From assembly GCA_041389025.1 (NCBI GenBank), contig JAWKSP010000002.1, positions 184,079 to 248,078 on the forward strand: DNA of 64,000 nucleotides. The letters are read 5' to 3'. The notes under the pieces were generated by a model. That model saw only the letters and a program-made list of their open reading frames with translations, was not told the DNA's origin and searched no databases. Origin of the DNA: Minisyncoccota bacterium. GTDB taxonomy: Bacteria; Patescibacteriota; Minisyncoccia; Phycocordibacterales; UBA918. Position 1 is the first letter of the stretch; each line of letters begins with the position of its first letter. Below, piece by piece: positions 1 through 45,703 of this stretch. The position numbers and the translations under genes were made by a program.

Positions 1-39
1 AATAACGGATATATCCCCATTTACCCCCTTTTTACGTTT

Positions 40-59
40 GCTGCCGGACAGGGACTCGT
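40..59. repeat. 20-nt exact copy of the 3' end of tRNA-Gln (tgctgccggacagggactcg)
   Basis: Identical to 232..251. A second fragment at 372..390 (accattagacgatccggca) duplicates the tRNA 5' end at 286..304. Confidence 0.5.
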
Positions 60-233
60 CCTGACGGTCACCAAGCTATTTTGTTTCCTTTCAGTCACAA
101 AAGTAGCTGGTGCCGCGGGACACGGCTCGCTCATAAATATCGCTCCGCCGTTCGAGTCCTGACGCAAGTGACGAAGGTCACTTGCTTCCGGCAGCACGAG
201 AAAAAGCGCACATAGGCGCTTTTAACTCTCGTG

Positions 234-304
234 CTGCCGGACAGGGACTCGAACCCCGATAGACGGTACCAGAAACCGTAGTCCTACCATTAGACGATCC
301 GGCA
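234..304 (-). tRNA. tRNA-Gln (anticodon CTG)
   Basis: Reverse complement folds as a cloverleaf: acceptor TGCCGGA/TCCGGCA (U1:A72 as in bacterial tRNA-Gln), U8, anticodon stem ACGGT/ACCGT with loop TTCTGGT, T-arm CGGGG-TTCGAGT-CCCTG. A hairpin plus T-run (aaaagcgc..gcgcttttt) follows on the minus strand. Confidence 0.6.
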
Positions 305-478
305 GCAATGAATACAAAATATAATGAACTACTTTTTATTTCCGAGCGAACGCAGGTTGTATGATTTAATACCATTAGACGATCCGGCAATGTTTTGTTT
401 TTATGTGGCGAAAGCTTCGCTTTCGCCACAAGTCACACTATACTGCCATAGACGGTAAAAGATTCAAGTTCATTATAA

Positions 479-6972: not shown

Positions 6973-7386
6973 TTAGTCAGAAAATATAGTGTTAGAGACA
7001 ACTTTTATTGTATTCTTATAATCCGAACTATCCAGACTTTCTAAAAATACCGCTAATTCATCAAGCTCAAAACCATTCAAATGACACTGAAGATTATTTA
7101 TCTTACATAAAACCAAAAAGGTTAAAACAGCAGTCCTTTTATTACCATCTACAAAAGGATGATTTTTGATTAAAAAATAAAGGTAAGCAACGACTTTATC
7201 GGTTGATTTACTATAATTTTCTTCGCCGTAGTTTACTCCATTAACATTAGCTACAATAGCTTCAATTTTATTTATCACCCCTTTACCAACAGGAAAAACA
7301 ACCAGATTCTCATTAAGCAGAAGGTTGTAAATCTCGCAAATGTTCTCTGACGTTAGTGGTTGAAATATCTTTTTTTCCTTCGTCAT
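6973..7386 (-). CDS. doc: Doc/Fic family toxin (death-on-curing-like)
   Basis: HPFVDGNKRTA matches the Doc-type Fic motif HxFx(D/N)GNKR; 137 aa as expected for Doc. Confidence 0.6.
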   Translation of the reverse strand: MTKEKKIFQPLTSENICEIYNLLLNENLVVFPVGKGVINKIEAIVANVNGVNYGEENYSKSTDKVVAYLYFLIKNHPFVDGNKRTAVLTFLVLCKINNLQCHLNGFELDELAVFLESLDSSDYKNTIKVVSNTIFSD

Positions 7387-10970: not shown

Positions 10971-11576
10971 GTGTTTATTTTTAATGAAATTGGTATAATA
11001 TCAGTCATGAAAACTAAATCTGTTTTCTTCTCTGCCATCTTTTTTTCAATTATTTTAGGCCTAAGCCACACCACATACGCAGAAATCACGAAAAGTGTAG
11101 TCGATTCTGACATTTTGAATTATCACAACCAAGCGGAAGTTGAGAAAAAAGTTCGTGAGTATTTTGCTGAAACTCCAGACATGATTGAAATTGCTCGTTG
11201 CGAATCAAATTTCCGTCAATATACTGACAGCGGAAAAGCTTTACGCGGTGGTATGAACAATCAAATGGTTGGAGTATTTCAGTTTAATGAGTCCCTACAC
11301 TCAGCTGACGCTAAAAAGCTTGGATTTGATATCAACACTCTCGAAGGCAACTTAGCTTATGCAAAATATGTTTATGACTCACAAGGCAACACCCCGTGGA
11401 TTTCCGTTCGCCACTGTTGGGAGAATCCTGTTTTACCTAAAGTAACGACTGTCTTTAATAATACCGAACAAAGCATTTCAAAACCAACCAAAGCTGAACT
11501 AAAAGCAAAAATAAAACAGCTTTTACAGCTCCTCCAACTTCTACAACAATTACAAAAACTGCAAGAAATGGTTTAG
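10971..11576 (+). CDS. secreted protein with an Rpf/transglycosylase-like CES motif and a Q/L-repeat C-terminus
   Basis: Signal peptide; IARCESNFRQ...GVFQFN resembles the lysozyme-like Rpf domain; C-terminal KQLLQLLQLLQQLQKLQ. Confidence 0.3.
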   Translation: MFIFNEIGIISVMKTKSVFFSAIFFSIILGLSHTTYAEITKSVVDSDILNYHNQAEVEKKVREYFAETPDMIEIARCESNFRQYTDSGKALRGGMNNQMVGVFQFNESLHSADAKKLGFDINTLEGNLAYAKYVYDSQGNTPWISVRHCWENPVLPKVTTVFNNTEQSISKPTKAELKAKIKQLLQLLQLLQQLQKLQEMV

Positions 11577-24840: not shown

Positions 24841-25728
24841 CTAATACCCGTATATAGAAAAATGAGATGCAGAAATCCAATTACCCAATACTTTTATATC
24901 ATCACCAGAGGCACCTTGTGATATCAAACTATCTTTCTCCGCTTGGGTTTTAACCTCATAGACTGGCCTTAATCCATTTTTTTTAGCGGCATCTATAACC
25001 CTAACAACTTCTGCCCCAGTCATACCACCCGCCTTACTATAATCAATACAAGTTCCGTTATTGTGACATTCGCTTTTATGCGCACGGGTTGGTGGCATAC
25101 CTTCTGTAACTCTTGCTCCAGACACACCTGCATCTATATGAAACTGGTTTATTTTATCAACGATACTAGGTGATACACTACAACTACTTGCATTCTTACA
25201 CGGAGCAGCAAGAGGAACACAAGTCCCTCCAGTACAACCAGATGGCAACGGTCCTGTTGGTGGTGGAGTGTTAGGATCGGACATGGGATCCCCTAGCCAT
25301 TTAGTTGGCGCAGTCTGCACCTGACACTGTACATCTGTCCACGGTCCATAACCTTGAATTTCCCCACTACCACCCTTTAATAAACCTCGCATAATAGTAT
25401 CTACCAAAAGCCAAGCCGCCATCACAATAACCAGTCCGATAATAGCATTGGTAAACTTACTCTTAGCATCCTCTAAAGCTGAAGTGTTACCACCAGAAGT
25501 TATCAATTTAAAGCCAGCAACCGTCATCATAACCGCAAAAATCATAAAAATAATTCCAAACAACCATTTTATGACAATATTGGCTGTATCTACTAAATTA
25601 CACGCACTACAATCGACTCCATCACAAGTGAGGAAGCCTTGAGCATTTACAGACTCAGCCGGCACTATAAGCACTAAAAGAAATACTAATAATGGTGGAG
25701 AGATAAGTGTTAAAGTTTTTTTAATCAT
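24841..25728 (-). CDS. pilin-like two-TM module (TrbC/VirB2 or T4SS-pilin style) fused to a Cys-rich C-terminal domain with an M15-like HxxGxCxD segment
   Basis: Signal peptide, Cys cluster CDGVDCSAC, TM1, loop GGNTSALEDAKSKF, TM2 NAIIGLVIVMAAWLLV; C-terminal HNNGTCID. Confidence 0.4.
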   Translation of the reverse strand: MIKKTLTLISPPLLVFLLVLIVPAESVNAQGFLTCDGVDCSACNLVDTANIVIKWLFGIIFMIFAVMMTVAGFKLITSGGNTSALEDAKSKFTNAIIGLVIVMAAWLLVDTIMRGLLKGGSGEIQGYGPWTDVQCQVQTAPTKWLGDPMSDPNTPPPTGPLPSGCTGGTCVPLAAPCKNASSCSVSPSIVDKINQFHIDAGVSGARVTEGMPPTRAHKSECHNNGTCIDYSKAGGMTGAEVVRVIDAAKKNGLRPVYEVKTQAEKDSLISQGASGDDIKVLGNWISASHFSIYGY

Positions 25729-25749
25729 AAAATTATTACTTAAATTATA

Positions 25750-26766
25750 CTACAAAGCATCCGCCACACTAGTAATGTTTTTTACATAATTTCTAGTCTC
25801 TACATAACCAGTATTTGGCACACAACTAGAATTTTCAGTCTCATAACATCCTGGACTATCCCAAGCACATTCCCACCGCATCAGTCCCGGACAATCATTG
25901 CTAGGTAAAATTGCAGCTGGTCCACCATTATATTCAGCCAAAGCTCGACTGGTAGCGTTATCATAAGCTCGATGTTTTTCATACAATTGATCATAATACT
26001 TAGCACCTAAAGCTAAGCTATAATTATTATCATCTCGTAATTTTGTCGCTACTTCCTCATCGCTTAAACCTTTTAAACTAGGGTCCAGTCCTCGAGCAGT
26101 ACTAACCAACATCTGACTACAACCATAGGCTGTACCATATGGTGTATCTGGCCCTACTTTATTGGTACAGTTACCAGATTCTTGCATAATTAGTGACTTA
26201 AATATTTTTTGTTGGTACGGATCGTTTATACCATTTGCGACAGCTGTGTTTTGTATATCCGTTTGAATACTACCGGAAGAATTTATTGCATTTACTGCTG
26301 AATTAATTTCATTGGTATTAAATATATGATTATTACTACCAGTAGCTGTGGTCCTAGCAAATTGCTGAGCTGTTGGCTGAGCCACACACTGAATATCATC
26401 CCAGAAGTCATAAGTAGGACTGTTTACCATTACTTTCAAACCAAAATCCACCACAAACCAAACGGCTAAAAAAATAATGTAGCCAACAATTGCATTAATA
26501 AGATATTTTTTGATTTGCGTTCTGGCTCCAGCCTGACCAACCGAAGAAGCTAGCCATAAACCAAGCACCATTATCATGATAATTATAAGAACCCCCAAGA
26601 TAATACCTAGCCAATCAAAAATGTTTTGTATTAATTTAACAACGTGACAAGTTTGACAAGGATCTGCTCCATCTCCTCCACACGGCACCAATCCGGCAGC
26701 GCTCACCAAAATAGGAGAAACCATCAAGGTAAATAAAGTATAAACTTTCCACATATCCAAAATCAT
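25750..26766 (-). CDS. pilin-like two-TM module fused to a lytic transglycosylase (SLT) domain (VirB1-like activity)
   Basis: N-terminus parallels 24841..25728 (VPCGGDGADPCQTC, two TMs, INAIVGYIIFLAVWFV); C-terminal MQESGN...GCSQML...AEYNGG SLT motifs. Confidence 0.5.
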   Translation of the reverse strand: MILDMWKVYTLFTLMVSPILVSAAGLVPCGGDGADPCQTCHVVKLIQNIFDWLGIILGVLIIIMIMVLGLWLASSVGQAGARTQIKKYLINAIVGYIIFLAVWFVVDFGLKVMVNSPTYDFWDDIQCVAQPTAQQFARTTATGSNNHIFNTNEINSAVNAINSSGSIQTDIQNTAVANGINDPYQQKIFKSLIMQESGNCTNKVGPDTPYGTAYGCSQMLVSTARGLDPSLKGLSDEEVATKLRDDNNYSLALGAKYYDQLYEKHRAYDNATSRALAEYNGGPAAILPSNDCPGLMRWECAWDSPGCYETENSSCVPNTGYVETRNYVKNITSVADAL

Positions 26767-43272: not shown

Positions 43273-43322
43273 CACGGAGGAAAATTACACTTTCAGTGTA
43301 ATTTTCCTCCGTGAGTCCTGGG
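43264..43322. repeat. 27-bp perfect inverted repeat whose left arm is the 3' end of tRNA-Cys
   Basis: cccaggactcacggaggaaaattacac-tttca-gtgtaattttcctccgtgagtcctggg. Confidence 0.6.
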
Positions 43323-43329
43323 AGCAAAG

Positions 43330-43480
43330 TATTTTAATACTTTGCGTCGGGAATCGAAAAGCGAACGATCTGAGTCGCTTCTTCCTAAAGCGACGAAGCA
43401 GTGAGCTGTGGTCAAGCGAGTGAAATATTTTCATGTTTTAGAACATGAAAATATCCACGAGAGTGACCGATTCCTTTCCA
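43330..43480. repeat. diverged repeat R1 (related to 43808..43945), ending in a tRNA-3'-end-like segment
   Basis: Shared blocks cgggaatcgaaaagcg / cgggaattgaaaagcg, gagtcgct / gagtcgact, gtgaccgattcc / gtgaccaattcc; internal hairpins. Confidence 0.4.
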
Positions 43481-43675
43481 GCAAAACTCGAAACACTAAG
43501 TAACAACATACTCGACAGTATATTCGTTATCTATTGTAAGATTTAGTGGAGTTATTACATACCAACGTGGTGTAATCAGTAGATCACACTGTCCTAGAGA
43601 CATTCCTATAGGGACTTAAAGAAAGTCCCGTGACTAATTATATTATTTAGAGTAGGATTCAAAAAAAATATTAAT

Positions 43676-43765: not shown

Positions 43766-43807
43766 AATTAAAAAGTAACAACTTCTTGTTGTTGCTTTTT
43801 AATTTAC

Positions 43808-43945
43808 GTAGTCAGAATGACGGGAATTGAAAAGCGTAATTTTAATTCGAATACTTGGAGTATTAAAATAGCTGGGGTCGAGGAGCTTAGTACTTTTTGG
43901 AGTCGACTAAGACGAACAAAAATACTTAGCGAGGTGACCAATTCC
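43808..43945. repeat. diverged repeat R2, ending in ccaattcccgcccttagcac (near-copy of the tRNA-Leu-TAA 3' end)
   Basis: The 3' end matches 43745..43763 (caattcccgccctcggcac) at about 17/19 positions. Confidence 0.45.
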
Positions 43946-44371
43946 CGCCCTTAGCACAAAAAAACAACGAGTCTACTTTGGTTGGACTCGTTGTTTGTAT
44001 TCTAAAGCTAGAATTTAGTGTAATGATATAATCTTTTCCGACAATACTCGCAGTCACTGATGGTAAGTTTGGTAGACCAATCCAAACCATAGTCACCGTC
44101 TGATTTATATAATCCAAGAAAACATAAAGCTCTTCGAGAAAGTAAAATAGACAACATACCCCGTATCTTCAAAAATAAGTTAGTTAATATTCCTTTAATA
44201 TTCATCAGATATGTTCCTCCATAAAGATAAAAACAACATTATACCCAGTAAACAATATAAAACTTTTTACTTTGAAGGACAACCTCATCGCCGTTAAATT
44301 TAAATCATCTAAATAAACAATTTTACGGCTTGTTTTTGACTACAAACTATTGTAAACTCATCGACACACAC

Positions 44372-44444: not shown

Positions 44445-44556
44445 CGCGAGTAAAACAAACTTCTCACTTTAAAAAGACAAGGAAGTTTGTTTTAATTTCG
44501 CGTCCGAGGCGTAACGATGTATTCTGCTCTACCTAGGCAGAAAACAGTAGAAGTGG

Positions 44557-45476: not shown

Positions 45477-45703
45477 CTAGTATAAAAATCAGCTTGACGA
45501 TTAGTCGGGCGATTTTTGTTAGTGCGCGGGAAGAAAGCAAACTACTTTGCTTTCGTGAGGGCTTGAAGACCGGAACGATGCCGCAGGCAAGTGAGGTGGG
45601 GTCGAGAAAATTTTGCTTTGCAAAATTATTCGTGACCAAGTCCTCTCCCGCGCACTAATATAAGAAATCAGTTCGACGAATAATCGGGTTTTTAATTTTA
45701 CTT
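45461..45703. repeat. direct repeat of the tRNA-Leu-TAG 3' end plus about 40 nt of downstream sequence (copy 1 at 45461..45517, copy 2 at 45639..45703)
   Basis: agtcctctcccgcgcacta(g/a)tataa(a/g)aatcag(c/t)t(t/c)gacga(t/a)ta(g/a)tcggg...ttttt, about 85% identity; a second acceptor-like gcgcggg lies at about 45524. Confidence 0.55.

Follow-up and report, generated by a model that had tools for sequence, protein, structure and literature searches.

In the stretch of DNA analysed here, 64 kb long and called the window below, the copy of the tRNA-Gln 3' end that lies downstream of the gene is a working helix strand of a 158-nt element and not a passive scar, based on the stable fold of this element, the inverted tRNA-end copy that it carries, and the conserved family of such elements behind many different tRNAs. 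The element is, in fact, a member of an undescribed multi-copy family located almost only directly 3' of tRNAs in Paceibacteria (CPR). Our account as a whole is that tRNA-Gln sits in two "frames" made of its own ends, within a multi-copy family whose non-autonomous cassette is exchanged, and we would assign it a probability of roughly 0.5.

Duplication of both tRNA-Gln ends, claimed in a preliminary description of this DNA, was borne out, with no match expected by chance at either end (for the 3' end, in shuffles allowing up to 3 mismatches). The 64-kb window contains the 3'-end 20-mer TGCTGCCGGACAGGGACTCG exactly two times, at 232-251 and, as an exact 20-nt copy, at 39-58 (previously placed at 40..59), while the 5'-end 20-mer TACCATTAGACGATCCGGCA lies at 285-304 and 370-389, and is 20 nt long rather than the 19 nt reported at 286-304 and 372-390. 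The same atg was said to follow both 5' copies; what is found is gcaATG after the tRNA copy and ATG after the upstream one, and a 3-nt gap is needed to bring them into register. The gacggtcacc stretch, formerly regarded as pseudo-tRNA-like, does not resemble a tRNA; it corresponds to GUGACC, a conserved motif at 66-71 (minus sense) that makes up helix P5. The preliminary description did not mention a third copy of the tRNA-Gln 3' end, which is inverted and lies at 150-161 and 187-196. The features of the locus are as follows:

233..304, minus strand: tRNA-Gln(CUG) gene (ARAGORN; Rfam tRNA model, 53.9 bits at 234-304)
232..251, minus strand: T3, the last 20 nt of the tRNA-Gln gene, CGAGUCCCUGUCCGGCAGCA
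197..231, minus strand: trailer and terminator-like palindrome, CGAGAG-UUAAAAGCGCC-UAUGU-GCGCUUUUU-CUCG
39..196, minus strand: whole tRNA-Gln-linked element, 158 nt, in the order P1-A-P2-GU-P3-cassette-P3'-P1' (MFE -80.6 kcal/mol)
187..196, minus strand: anti-T3 part 1, the P1 5' strand UGCUGCCGGA, complementary to the acceptor 3' strand, discriminator and CA
164..185, minus strand: P2, hairpin of a 9-bp stem and a 4-nt loop, GCAAGUGAC CUUC GUCACUUGC
153..161, minus strand: anti-T3 part 2, the P3 5' strand CAGGACUCG, complementary to the T-stem 3' strand and the 3' half of the T-loop
59..152, minus strand: cassette with junction GAAC, P4 (GGC/GCC base, GGAGCGAU...GAGCGAGCC), P5 and the GUGACC motif (66-71), from MFE folds and covariance-model matches
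39..58, minus strand: T3', exact 20-nt direct copy of the tRNA-Gln 3' end, forming the 3' strands of P3 and P1

The tRNA-Gln(CUG) gene has no encoded CCA, its discriminator G at 234 being followed by C 233 and A 232. T3, from which the direct copy and the inverted copy both derive, spans T-loop C56, the 3' strands of the T-stem and acceptor stem, the discriminator and CA. The stem of the terminator-like palindrome extends outward into T3 and anti-T3 (inverted repeat 187-201 / 227-241, 15/15); a scan of 1-600 for sigma-70 promoters and strict terminators called nothing, this palindrome included. In MFE folds anti-T3 and T3' pair into the closing helices P1 and P3 around the cassette. P2, flanked by A (186) and GU (163-162), is placed exactly opposite the boundary between acceptor and T-stem, and anti-T3 part 2 has an A opposite U64, which makes it a true complement of the tRNA end rather than a copy of the tRNA G50 strand. 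The cassette itself folds as a three-way junction: it has a GAA junction, tandem G-A loops in P4, a conserved G.U within P5 (GGUC/GACC), and the GUGACC motif. MFE z-scores of three elements in the window range from -6.6 to -8.7; for the Gln element the tRNA strand has a value of -7.4 and the opposite strand one of -8.7, and because both strands fold about equally well, this element may, judging from folding energies, also have a role as single-stranded DNA.

Membership of the Gln element in a wider family was assessed with two covariance models. R1, built from 7 other elements with the tRNA-Gln locus left out, matched the Gln element at 50-161 on the minus strand with 36.1 bits (E 1.2e-6), the best score in 0.96 Mb of non-CPR control DNA being 20.3 bits. 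R2 scored 68 bits on the Gln element; in Patescibacteria loci totalling 0.62 Mb it gave 13 strong matches, and the same 0.96 Mb of non-CPR control DNA yielded no match at E<=1. A same-strand tRNA lies immediately 5' of 12/13 strong family members and of all four matches in the window; one member that does not adjoin a tRNA is at 1830-1939 of locus L007. The family sample comprises about 20 members from 8 genomes, and the arms of each member match its local tRNA. A search of the window and five related loci with Rfam 15 (gathering score; E up to 10) retrieved only tRNAs at the gathering score and, below it, generic hairpin noise (miRNA models), a single-sequence nhmmer search recovered the seeds only, and in the literature we found no relevant account of tRNA-linked MITEs or structured RNAs in CPR. 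Besides the Gln element, the window holds the following members:

43313..43483, plus strand: family member behind tRNA-Cys (R1 95.9 bits)
43805..43955, plus strand: family member behind tRNA-Leu(UAA), without P1 and P2 (R1 99.6 bits)
45520..45655, plus strand: complete family member behind tRNA-Leu(UAG) (R1 63.2 bits)

The member behind tRNA-Leu(UAG) carries an exact 19-nt T3' at 45637-45655, behind which the tRNA terminator recurs in diverged form; the terminators after T3' and after the tRNA are 73% identical homologs. Behind tRNA-Leu(UAA) the direct 3'-end copy is exact over 13 nt. In the tRNA-Cys member P2 and the cassette are present, T3' has decayed, and anti-T3 is perfect, within a 27-bp palindrome with the tRNA end.

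The pattern of substitution within the family, together with the conserved G.U, points to an RNA made from the tRNA strand. In the family alignment, 92-95% of cells are paired, versus 21-46% when the partners are slid, and 13/18 pairs show changes on both sides. The base of P4 occurs as AGC/GCU, GAC/GUC, GGC/GCC and ACC/GGU, and the G.U pair of P5 is kept in 8/13 members. Across 7 loci, P2 is 95% paired with 6/9 pairs changed on both sides, and in P3 such changes affect 6/8 pairs, the columns of P3 and P1 varying with the adjacent tRNA. The window and a Kaiserbacteria MAG, with IF-2 proteins that share 74% identity, have orthologous Leu(UAG) elements set apart by 8 compensatory double changes. 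A coding reading was rejected for the ORFs at 21-197 and 178-429 (overlap with the tRNA), and likewise for a 45-aa ORF through the Leu(UAA) element, which is not conserved and has a stop in L162.

Comparison of loci argues for exchange of the cassette between sites. The Leu(UAA) cassette of the window and the Leu(UAG) cassette of L162 are 96% identical in their interior, and the arms around them both switch to match the differing tRNA. Within L162, the cassettes behind Cys and in copy B behind Leu(UAA) are 98% identical, whereas orthologous Cys cassettes are only 74% identical. Comparison with orthologous loci, proposed in the preliminary description, does uncover an empty site: L082 has tRNA-Gln(CUG) in the same gene order without the 3' element. 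At Cys, L164 and L170 show a frame that lacks a cassette, and tandem arrays occur in L162 and L169. No integrase or transposase adjoins the tRNA-linked elements of the window (Pfam on neighbouring genes from window position 1 onward) or appears in the Pfam gene tables covering 10 kb on either side at L162, L172 and L173, and no recombinase, nuclease or reverse transcriptase ORF adjoins any member, according to neighbour Pfam matches and the tables of those three loci. In L169 a Y1_Tnp gene (PF01797) lies between tRNA-Leu(UAA) and its element; it is bounded by its own hairpin ends and is part of a separate IS insertion. A search for relatives of the elements among phages, plasmids and viral contigs found none.

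Rather than marking both ends of a single event, the 5' and 3' duplications belong to two separate structures, the 5' one being made up of these features:

370..389, minus strand: 5' copy, UGCCGGAUCGUCUAAUGGUA, identical to tRNA positions 1-20 and located 65 nt 5' of the gene
341..356, minus strand: motif CCUGCGUUCGCUCGGA between the 5' copy and tRNA-Gln, with the counterpart CCUGCGCUCGGA in L082
404..430, no strand assigned: hairpin with a perfect 12-bp stem, which closes the region of the upstream His_Phos gene and marks the outer boundary of the 5' structure

In L082, where dnaX is 70% identical and gene order is as in the window, an analogue of the hairpin at 404..430 is present, and the 5' structures of the two loci, judged by the motif that they share at 341..356, are orthologous. 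The 5' copy of L082, 20 nt in length, tracks its own tRNA, which differs from that of the window at acceptor positions 6-7, and has a complementary partner, with which it pairs, directly 5' of the tRNA. The window copy has no such complementary partner, and its tie to an element therefore comes from one relative (L082); based on that comparison, it is probably the outer (distal) arm of a 5' element of mirror-image form that has been truncated. On the 5' side, then, the window would hold what is left of a mirror-image element, intact in a relative, after loss of the inner complementary arm. Further 5' copies are found in L003, in L007 and at tRNA-Tyr of L162.

On the 3' side we propose that the frame arises by triplication of the tRNA end in direct, inverted and again direct orientation; the terminator palindrome would lie at its centre, and the near-palindromic T-loop would be where it ends. 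The cassette would be a small non-autonomous element, selfish or domesticated, which lives in tRNA 3' flanks and is exchanged between tRNA 3'-flank sites and between genomes. It would presumably be carried on read-through transcription from the tRNA, through the terminator-like hairpin; because the frame is made from local sequence, we infer that the tRNA gene stays intact while the cassette rides the read-through transcript. Within this transcript T3, anti-T3 and T3' might compete. In the predicted optimum, anti-T3 pairs with the real tRNA 3' end and the tRNA 5' acceptor strand with T3', an arrangement that beats the folded tRNA plus closed element by 9-15 kcal/mol (full-locus MFE, three loci). 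Several members have a decayed T3' and a still perfect anti-T3, a pattern that suits pairing of anti-T3 with the tRNA, or correction of the palindrome, better than it suits a simple "clamp".

Such competition could also be the point of the structure, as in a cis-acting RNA switch where anti-T3 sequesters the new tRNA 3' end by toehold invasion, T3' serves as anti-sequestor, and a sensor in the junction gates tRNA yield, with a ligand, a protein or a tRNA as the input that sets which pairing wins. The perfect complementarity of anti-T3 to the tRNA end and trailer over 21-27 bp (Gln, Cys and Leu(UAG), plus Tyr and Cys of L162), retained even where T3' has decayed, would suit this possibility, as would two mutually exclusive pairings 9-15 kcal/mol apart, a cassette with aptamer-like conserved loops and covarying helices, and a 5' structure in L082 that follows the same logic in mirror image. 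Mutually exclusive pairings and a conserved junction are seen, the position is downstream of the gene, and the elements matched none of the known aptamer models. Against a switch, however, are the terminator-like hairpin between tRNA and sequestor, a patchy distribution with orthologous sites sometimes empty, tandem arrays and near-identical cassettes at different tRNAs that resemble a mobile element, and one member that follows a protein gene; on balance we regard this explanation as doubtful. Neutral template switching during replication, at terminator palindromes and the near-palindromic T-loop, could generate the arms around a functionless RNA. Behind many tRNAs, in fact, terminator palindromes reach 4-27 nt into the acceptor strand as a continuum, arm boundaries fall in the T-loop, and a perfect anti-T3 beside a constrained tRNA is what quasi-palindrome correction predicts. 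It leaves unexplained, however, the conserved cassette with compensatory changes (at 74% IF-2 identity), the covariation in P2, the conserved G.U, and cassettes 96-98% identical at different loci, and as an explanation of the whole it seems to us very improbable.

The preliminary description had read the repeats as scars of site-specific integration or excision. The repeats themselves, the att-like extent of the 3' one, and filled and empty alleles in related genomes all stand; there is no island, however, no integrase among the neighbouring genes, and what lies between the 3' repeats, only 173 nt apart, is a stably folded element of the family. In its classical form this explanation would have attL/attR remnants of integrase-mediated islands that were later deleted, as in CIMEs. 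The tRNA-Gln 3' repeat does run from the T-loop (C56) to just beyond the discriminator; an extent from the T-loop to the 3' end is typical of att repeats at tRNA genes, many of whose att sites have such a direct repeat. Each unit also brings its own T3 and terminator, the one after the Leu(UAG) copy being homologous to that after the tRNA (73% identity), and tandem arrays exist. Nevertheless, no integrase is found near the members examined, the inserts measure merely 130-190 nt, every unit contains an inverted copy of the att segment, one and the same cassette occurs at different tRNAs with differing arms, RNA-type covariation that includes a conserved G.U is unexpected for decaying attP arms, and no relatives were found in phages, plasmids or viral contigs. 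We hold att scars to be very improbable too. Even less credence is due to the idea that the fragments belong to a second functional tRNA gene, which the preliminary description named as a refuting outcome, or to an intron-containing one. P1 and the first part of P3 do mimic the acceptor/T-stem stack of tRNA-Gln, with P2 in place of the D and anticodon arms, and intron-containing tRNA genes overlooked by gene finders have been described in Patescibacteria, with introns at position 35/36 in the anticodon loop (PMC13011429). Only one tRNA is called at the locus, however, by ARAGORN and by the Rfam tRNA model with E up to 10, and a second or pseudo-tRNA in 1-430 is found by neither; the structure lacks both an anticodon arm and a T-loop (the bases of the latter are paired), and it matches no intron family of Rfam, group I and group II models included. 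The group I introns of Patescibacteria tRNAs were set aside as unrelated, as they sit in the anticodon loop at 35/36 (PMC13011429). A search of 1-430 for a tmRNA or permuted tmRNA found none, and likenesses to hammerhead, hairpin, k-turn and T-box-platform motifs were weighed by eye and led to no claim.

Genomes of CPR/Patescibacteria are extremely compact, and hundreds of conserved, covarying non-coding bases behind many tRNAs therefore need to be accounted for. If mobile, the elements would represent a new route for a selfish element into tRNA genes without an integrase, leaving the tRNA unharmed and having its arms rebuilt from each target. Acting as switches, they would constitute the first RNA devices located 3' of a tRNA that gate maturation via competition for acceptor and T-stem strands. 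In either case, they yield att-like repeats of tRNA ends that island and prophage finders would be prone to misread, and they break short-read assemblies at tRNAs. One contig of SRR28338157, identical in sequence to the window, ends at the tRNA-Gln locus within the T-loop. R1 and R2 define an RNA family that can be searched for across CPR genomes and tested in metatranscriptomes.

Several known systems share part of these features. Like MITEs, REPINs and PATEs linked to RAYT or IS200/605, the elements are multi-copy, non-coding and hairpin-forming, occupy extragenic positions just after genes or terminators, and have near-identical copies at different loci. Unlike them, they have target-derived, locus-specific arms in place of conserved terminal inverted repeats, show neither a fixed short target duplication nor, as far as found, a linked transposase, and sit almost exclusively behind tRNAs, in the same orientation. 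With group II introns (EBS/IBS), IS110 bridge RNA and TnpB omega RNA they have in common a structured scaffold with a segment complementary to the flank of the insertion site. We would entertain as unlikely the notion that the cassette is a programmable, guide-bearing mobile RNA, with anti-T3 as a guide of about 20 nt for insertion at the matching tRNA end, T3' as duplicated target, an effector from elsewhere in the genome or the three-way junction acting as a ribozyme, and retargeting by arm swap. In contrast to those systems, however, no recombinase, nuclease or reverse transcriptase is adjacent, a hairpin divides the complement of about 20 nt, which pairs, inside the element, with a target copy, and size and fold match none of them.

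A likeness to archaeal tRNA introns and to split or permuted tRNAs appears in the read-through fold, where the 5' part of the tRNA pairs with the distal T3' and, formally, about 190 nt then lie within the T-loop between positions 55 and 56, as an archaeal intron might. Here, however, a complete, uninterrupted tRNA gene precedes the element and the host is bacterial, for which we know of no splicing endonuclease. In mascRNA at the MALAT1 3' end, the tRNA-like domain of tmRNA and mitochondrial t-elements, the parallel is that the acceptor/T-stem stack, discriminator included, is reproduced in P1 and the beginning of P3, and by analogy recognition of this stack in the manner of RNase P or RNase Z is conceivable. 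The present helix, unlike those mimics, is blunt (discriminator and CA are paired) and has no T-loop or elbow, many members are without P1, and searches with mascRNA and tmRNA models gave nothing beyond the real tRNA and noise.

Sublocation classes of tRNA-gene integrative elements were reportedly described by Williams in 2002. With such elements and with CIMEs the family shares a direct repeat from the T-loop to the 3' end, a replacement 3' end with terminator, an intact tRNA, tandem arrays, and filled and empty alleles. The present unit differs from both, however, in being 130-190 nt long, with no cargo, no integrase and an internal inverted att copy, in that cassettes 96-98% identical are found behind Leu(UAA), Leu(UAG) and Cys with locally matched arms instead of at one tRNA target, and in that its interior is a covarying RNA structure.

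Both ends of tRNA-Gln(CUG) are duplicated, as the preliminary description had claimed: exact 20-mers lie on either side of the gene where shuffled sequence gives an expectation of zero and, in fact, either 20-mer has only its two matches in the 64 kb with three mismatches allowed. The coordinates first assigned to the repeats were 1-2 nt off, the 5' repeat being 20 nt long and not 19, and the atg reported after both 5' copies is shared only if a 3-nt gap is introduced (ccggcaGCAatg versus ccggcaatg). What had been overlooked is an inverted third copy of the tRNA 3' end, within an element at 39-196 on the tRNA (minus) strand.

Features at the tRNA-Gln locus (all on the minus strand)
370-389: exact copy of the tRNA 5' end
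285-304: tRNA-Gln 5' end, first 20 nt
233-304: tRNA-Gln(CUG) (ARAGORN; Rfam tRNA model, 53.9 bits at 234-304)
232-251: tRNA-Gln 3' end, last 20 nt
231 to 197: trailer and terminator-like palindrome, directly after the tRNA
196-187: UGCUGCCGGA, complement of the acceptor 3' strand, discriminator and CA
185-164: P2, a 9-bp hairpin with one A before it and GU after it
161-153: CAGGACUCG, complement of the T-stem 3' strand and T-loop
between CAGGACUCG and the distal copy: further structure, 94 nt
58-39: distal exact copy of the tRNA 3' end (T3'), closing the element

Because an A of the inverted segment faces U64, where the tRNA's own base is G50, this segment is a true complement and not a copy of the tRNA 5' strands. 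The predicted fold of the 158-nt unit (-80.6 kcal/mol) pairs the two tRNA-derived strands into helices P1 and P3, which close off a three-way junction of P3, P4 and P5; we refer to the conserved junction part as the cassette and to the arms made from the tRNA end as the frame. Folding z-scores are -7.4 for the tRNA strand and -8.7 for the opposite one, and since both strands fold equally well, a role as single-stranded DNA may also be considered. As for the surroundings, the dnaX-linked tRNA-Gln is of the CUG type in the window and in L082, a relative with the same gene order, and of the UUG type in every one of the more distantly related Patescibacteria loci compared (L002-L007, L028, L083-L092); two His_Phos genes separate it from dnaX in the window, both with homologs in L082 and at least one in L084. 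A short-read contig (L001, Logan SRR28338157), 100% identical to positions 254-1999, terminates exactly between G53 and U54 of tRNA-Gln, where the repeated T-loop segment starts, which may mean either that the assembly broke at the repeats or that the population is heterogeneous.

The Cys, Leu(UAA) and Leu(UAG) tRNAs of the window show the same arrangement, each on its own strand. A covariance model built from seven elements, the Gln element being left out, recovered the latter (50-161, minus strand, 36.1 bits, E 1.2e-6), against a top match of 20.3 bits in unrelated bacterial loci totalling 0.96 Mb. The next model, trained on 13 members, gave 13 strong matches across 0.62 Mb of Patescibacteria loci, and the control yielded no match at E<=1. 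Of the 13, twelve directly follow a tRNA on the same strand, at a distance of 48-90 nt or as the second unit of a tandem pair; the sole non-tRNA member (L007, 1830-1939) follows the terminator of a protein gene. The sample, small at about 20 members from 8 genomes, includes members in the window and in the comparison loci L162 (Nomurabacteria), L169, L173 (Kaiserbacteria) and L091, and a related short form is present in L162, L169 and L172. The IF-2 of the window's organism is 100% identical to an entry labelled as a Candidatus Paceibacterota MAG.

The closing helix of the L007 member is ATTGTCTT/AAGACAAT, and its AAAGACAAT recurs about 130 nt upstream (~2045-2055), within the preceding gene, which may reflect the same logic of copying upstream sequence or a chance match (about 1 in 200). 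Behind tRNA-Lys(CUU) in the window (44446-44540), a terminator palindrome that takes in the final 4 nt of the tRNA (GGAC...GUCC) is followed by GAGGCGUAACGAUG, similar to the start of cassette helix P4; the covariance model did not call this site, which may be a decayed member. A tRNA-Lys-like gene in L169 (13877-13949), with an undetermined anticodon in ARAGORN ('ct') and an apparently shortened anticodon loop, precedes a hairpin like P2 and a number of cassette-like pieces. Downstream of tRNA-Gln(UUG) in L003 (~11330-11480) lies a partial cassette (GGGACUCGAAGG..., GGGGUCGAGG) whose anti-T segment fits the T-arm of a CUG-type tRNA-Gln better than that of the adjacent UUG tRNA, followed by an apparent C-terminal fragment of a pirin-like gene. 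A 45-aa ATG ORF across the whole Leu(UAA) element (43817-43954) was rejected as coding, since the 96%-identical copy in L162 lacks a start in this frame and has a stop ahead of it. The window's Fic/DOC-family gene (6973-7386) and two T4SS-pilin-domain genes close to tRNA-Trp and tRNA-Tyr (24841-26766; one also with an SLT domain) are ordinary CPR content, unrelated to these elements.

Selection on RNA structure is suggested by the model alignments, where 92-95% of cells are paired, compared with 21-46% when partners are slid, and 13 of 18 pairs have changed on both sides. The base of P4 occurs as AGC/GCU, GAC/GUC, GGC/GCC and ACC/GGU, and P5 keeps a G.U pair where the opposite strand would have a C-A mismatch. 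P2 always has 9 bp and a 4-nt loop, with an A on one flank and GU on the other, replaced by GG in two members; it covaries at 6 of its 9 pairs. Between the window and L173, two genomes sharing only 74% identity in IF-2, the orthologous Leu(UAG) elements show 8 compensatory double changes, with the P4 region almost invariant. The P2 behind tRNA-Leu(UAA) in L173 (12330-12351) matches that behind Leu(UAG) in the window (45532-45553) at 22/22 positions, so P2 acts as a conserved or exchangeable module.

Several comparisons speak for movement or exchange of the elements. The cassettes of the window Leu(UAA) and L162 Leu(UAG) elements differ at only 4 of 111 interior positions, one pair being compensatory, while both arms are switched to suit the respective tRNA. 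Within L162, the Cys cassette and the one following Leu(UAA) share 98% identity; the orthologous Cys cassettes of the window and L162 are only 74% identical. The L082 site is empty, with no 3' element despite the shared dnaX - His_Phos - His_Phos - tRNA-Gln(CUG) order, and behind Cys in L164 and L170 the cassette is missing, though an anti-T3 arm (anti-T3 being the complement of the tRNA 3' end) is present together with a P2-like hairpin of 10 bp and a 3-nt loop. L162 and L169 carry tandem two-unit arrays, every unit ending with a tRNA-end copy and its own terminator.

Our account of the 5' copy is, as a whole, less secure than that of the 3' side. At the corresponding place L082 has a 20-nt copy of the first 20 nt of its own tRNA, which differs from the window tRNA at acceptor positions 6-7, the copy being changed likewise; between copy and tRNA, both loci share the motif CCUGCG..CGCUCGGA. 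This common place and motif, with a copy matching its own tRNA, argue that the 5' structure is old, yet that the copy has tracked the tRNA. The L082 copy is paired to its own complement, which sits 17 nt before the tRNA, in a direct-inverted-direct layout that mirrors the 3' side; because this complement and about 60 nt of interior are missing in the window, the copy there looks like a truncated 5' element. L003 and L007 have further 5' copies ahead of tRNA-Gln, and L162 has one ahead of tRNA-Tyr, the last followed by a hairpin and an interior similar to 3' cassettes.

The most likely explanation, to which we give a probability of about one half, is a small non-autonomous structured-RNA cassette that would be housed in frames built of local tRNA-end sequence, transcribed by read-through from the tRNA, and exchanged between tRNA sites and between genomes. 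In the transcript three strands would compete, namely T3 (the real tRNA 3' end), anti-T3 and T3'. Folding of the whole locus as a single transcript gives a common predicted optimum for Gln, Cys and Leu(UAG), in which T3 and anti-T3 form a long hairpin that is capped by the terminator and has P2 branching off its side, and the tRNA 5' acceptor strand pairs with T3'; this is predicted to beat the folded tRNA plus closed element by 9-15 kcal/mol. Anti-T3 keeps perfect complementarity to the end of the tRNA and its trailer over 21-27 bp, even where T3' has decayed, which argues that either pairing with the real tRNA end or palindrome correction matters.

In overall layout, the tRNA end is present three times, direct-inverted-direct, around the terminator palindrome as centre; the triplication terminates in the near-palindromic T-loop, always directly after a conserved GUGAC. 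Among the rival readings, a switch gating tRNA maturation is unlikely; that the elements are neutral template-switch products is, set beside the compensatory changes, improbable. The earlier reading as an integration scar did capture an att-like repeat, but the object itself is a structured RNA element, and no integrase or transposase was found adjoining any member, and no partner enzyme turned up, among the neighbouring genes in the window, L162, L172 and L173, so att scars of the ordinary kind seem very improbable. L169 does have one IS200/605 transposase, but as an insertion of its own: this Y1-type gene (PF01797; 12385-12834, and 12288-12960), with its own flanking hairpins, sits between tRNA-Leu(UAA) and its usual downstream terminator and element. 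A second tRNA is scarcely credible, as the stretch once called pseudo-tRNA-like is not tRNA-like and neither ARAGORN nor the Rfam tRNA model detected a second tRNA or pseudo-tRNA near tRNA-Gln.

Rfam 15 holds no match to this family, phage, plasmid and viral collections contained no relatives of the element, and our literature search found no description of it. Judged against these resources, the object behind tRNA-Gln belongs to a family of tRNA-end-clamped structured RNA elements of CPR bacteria that has so far gone undescribed.
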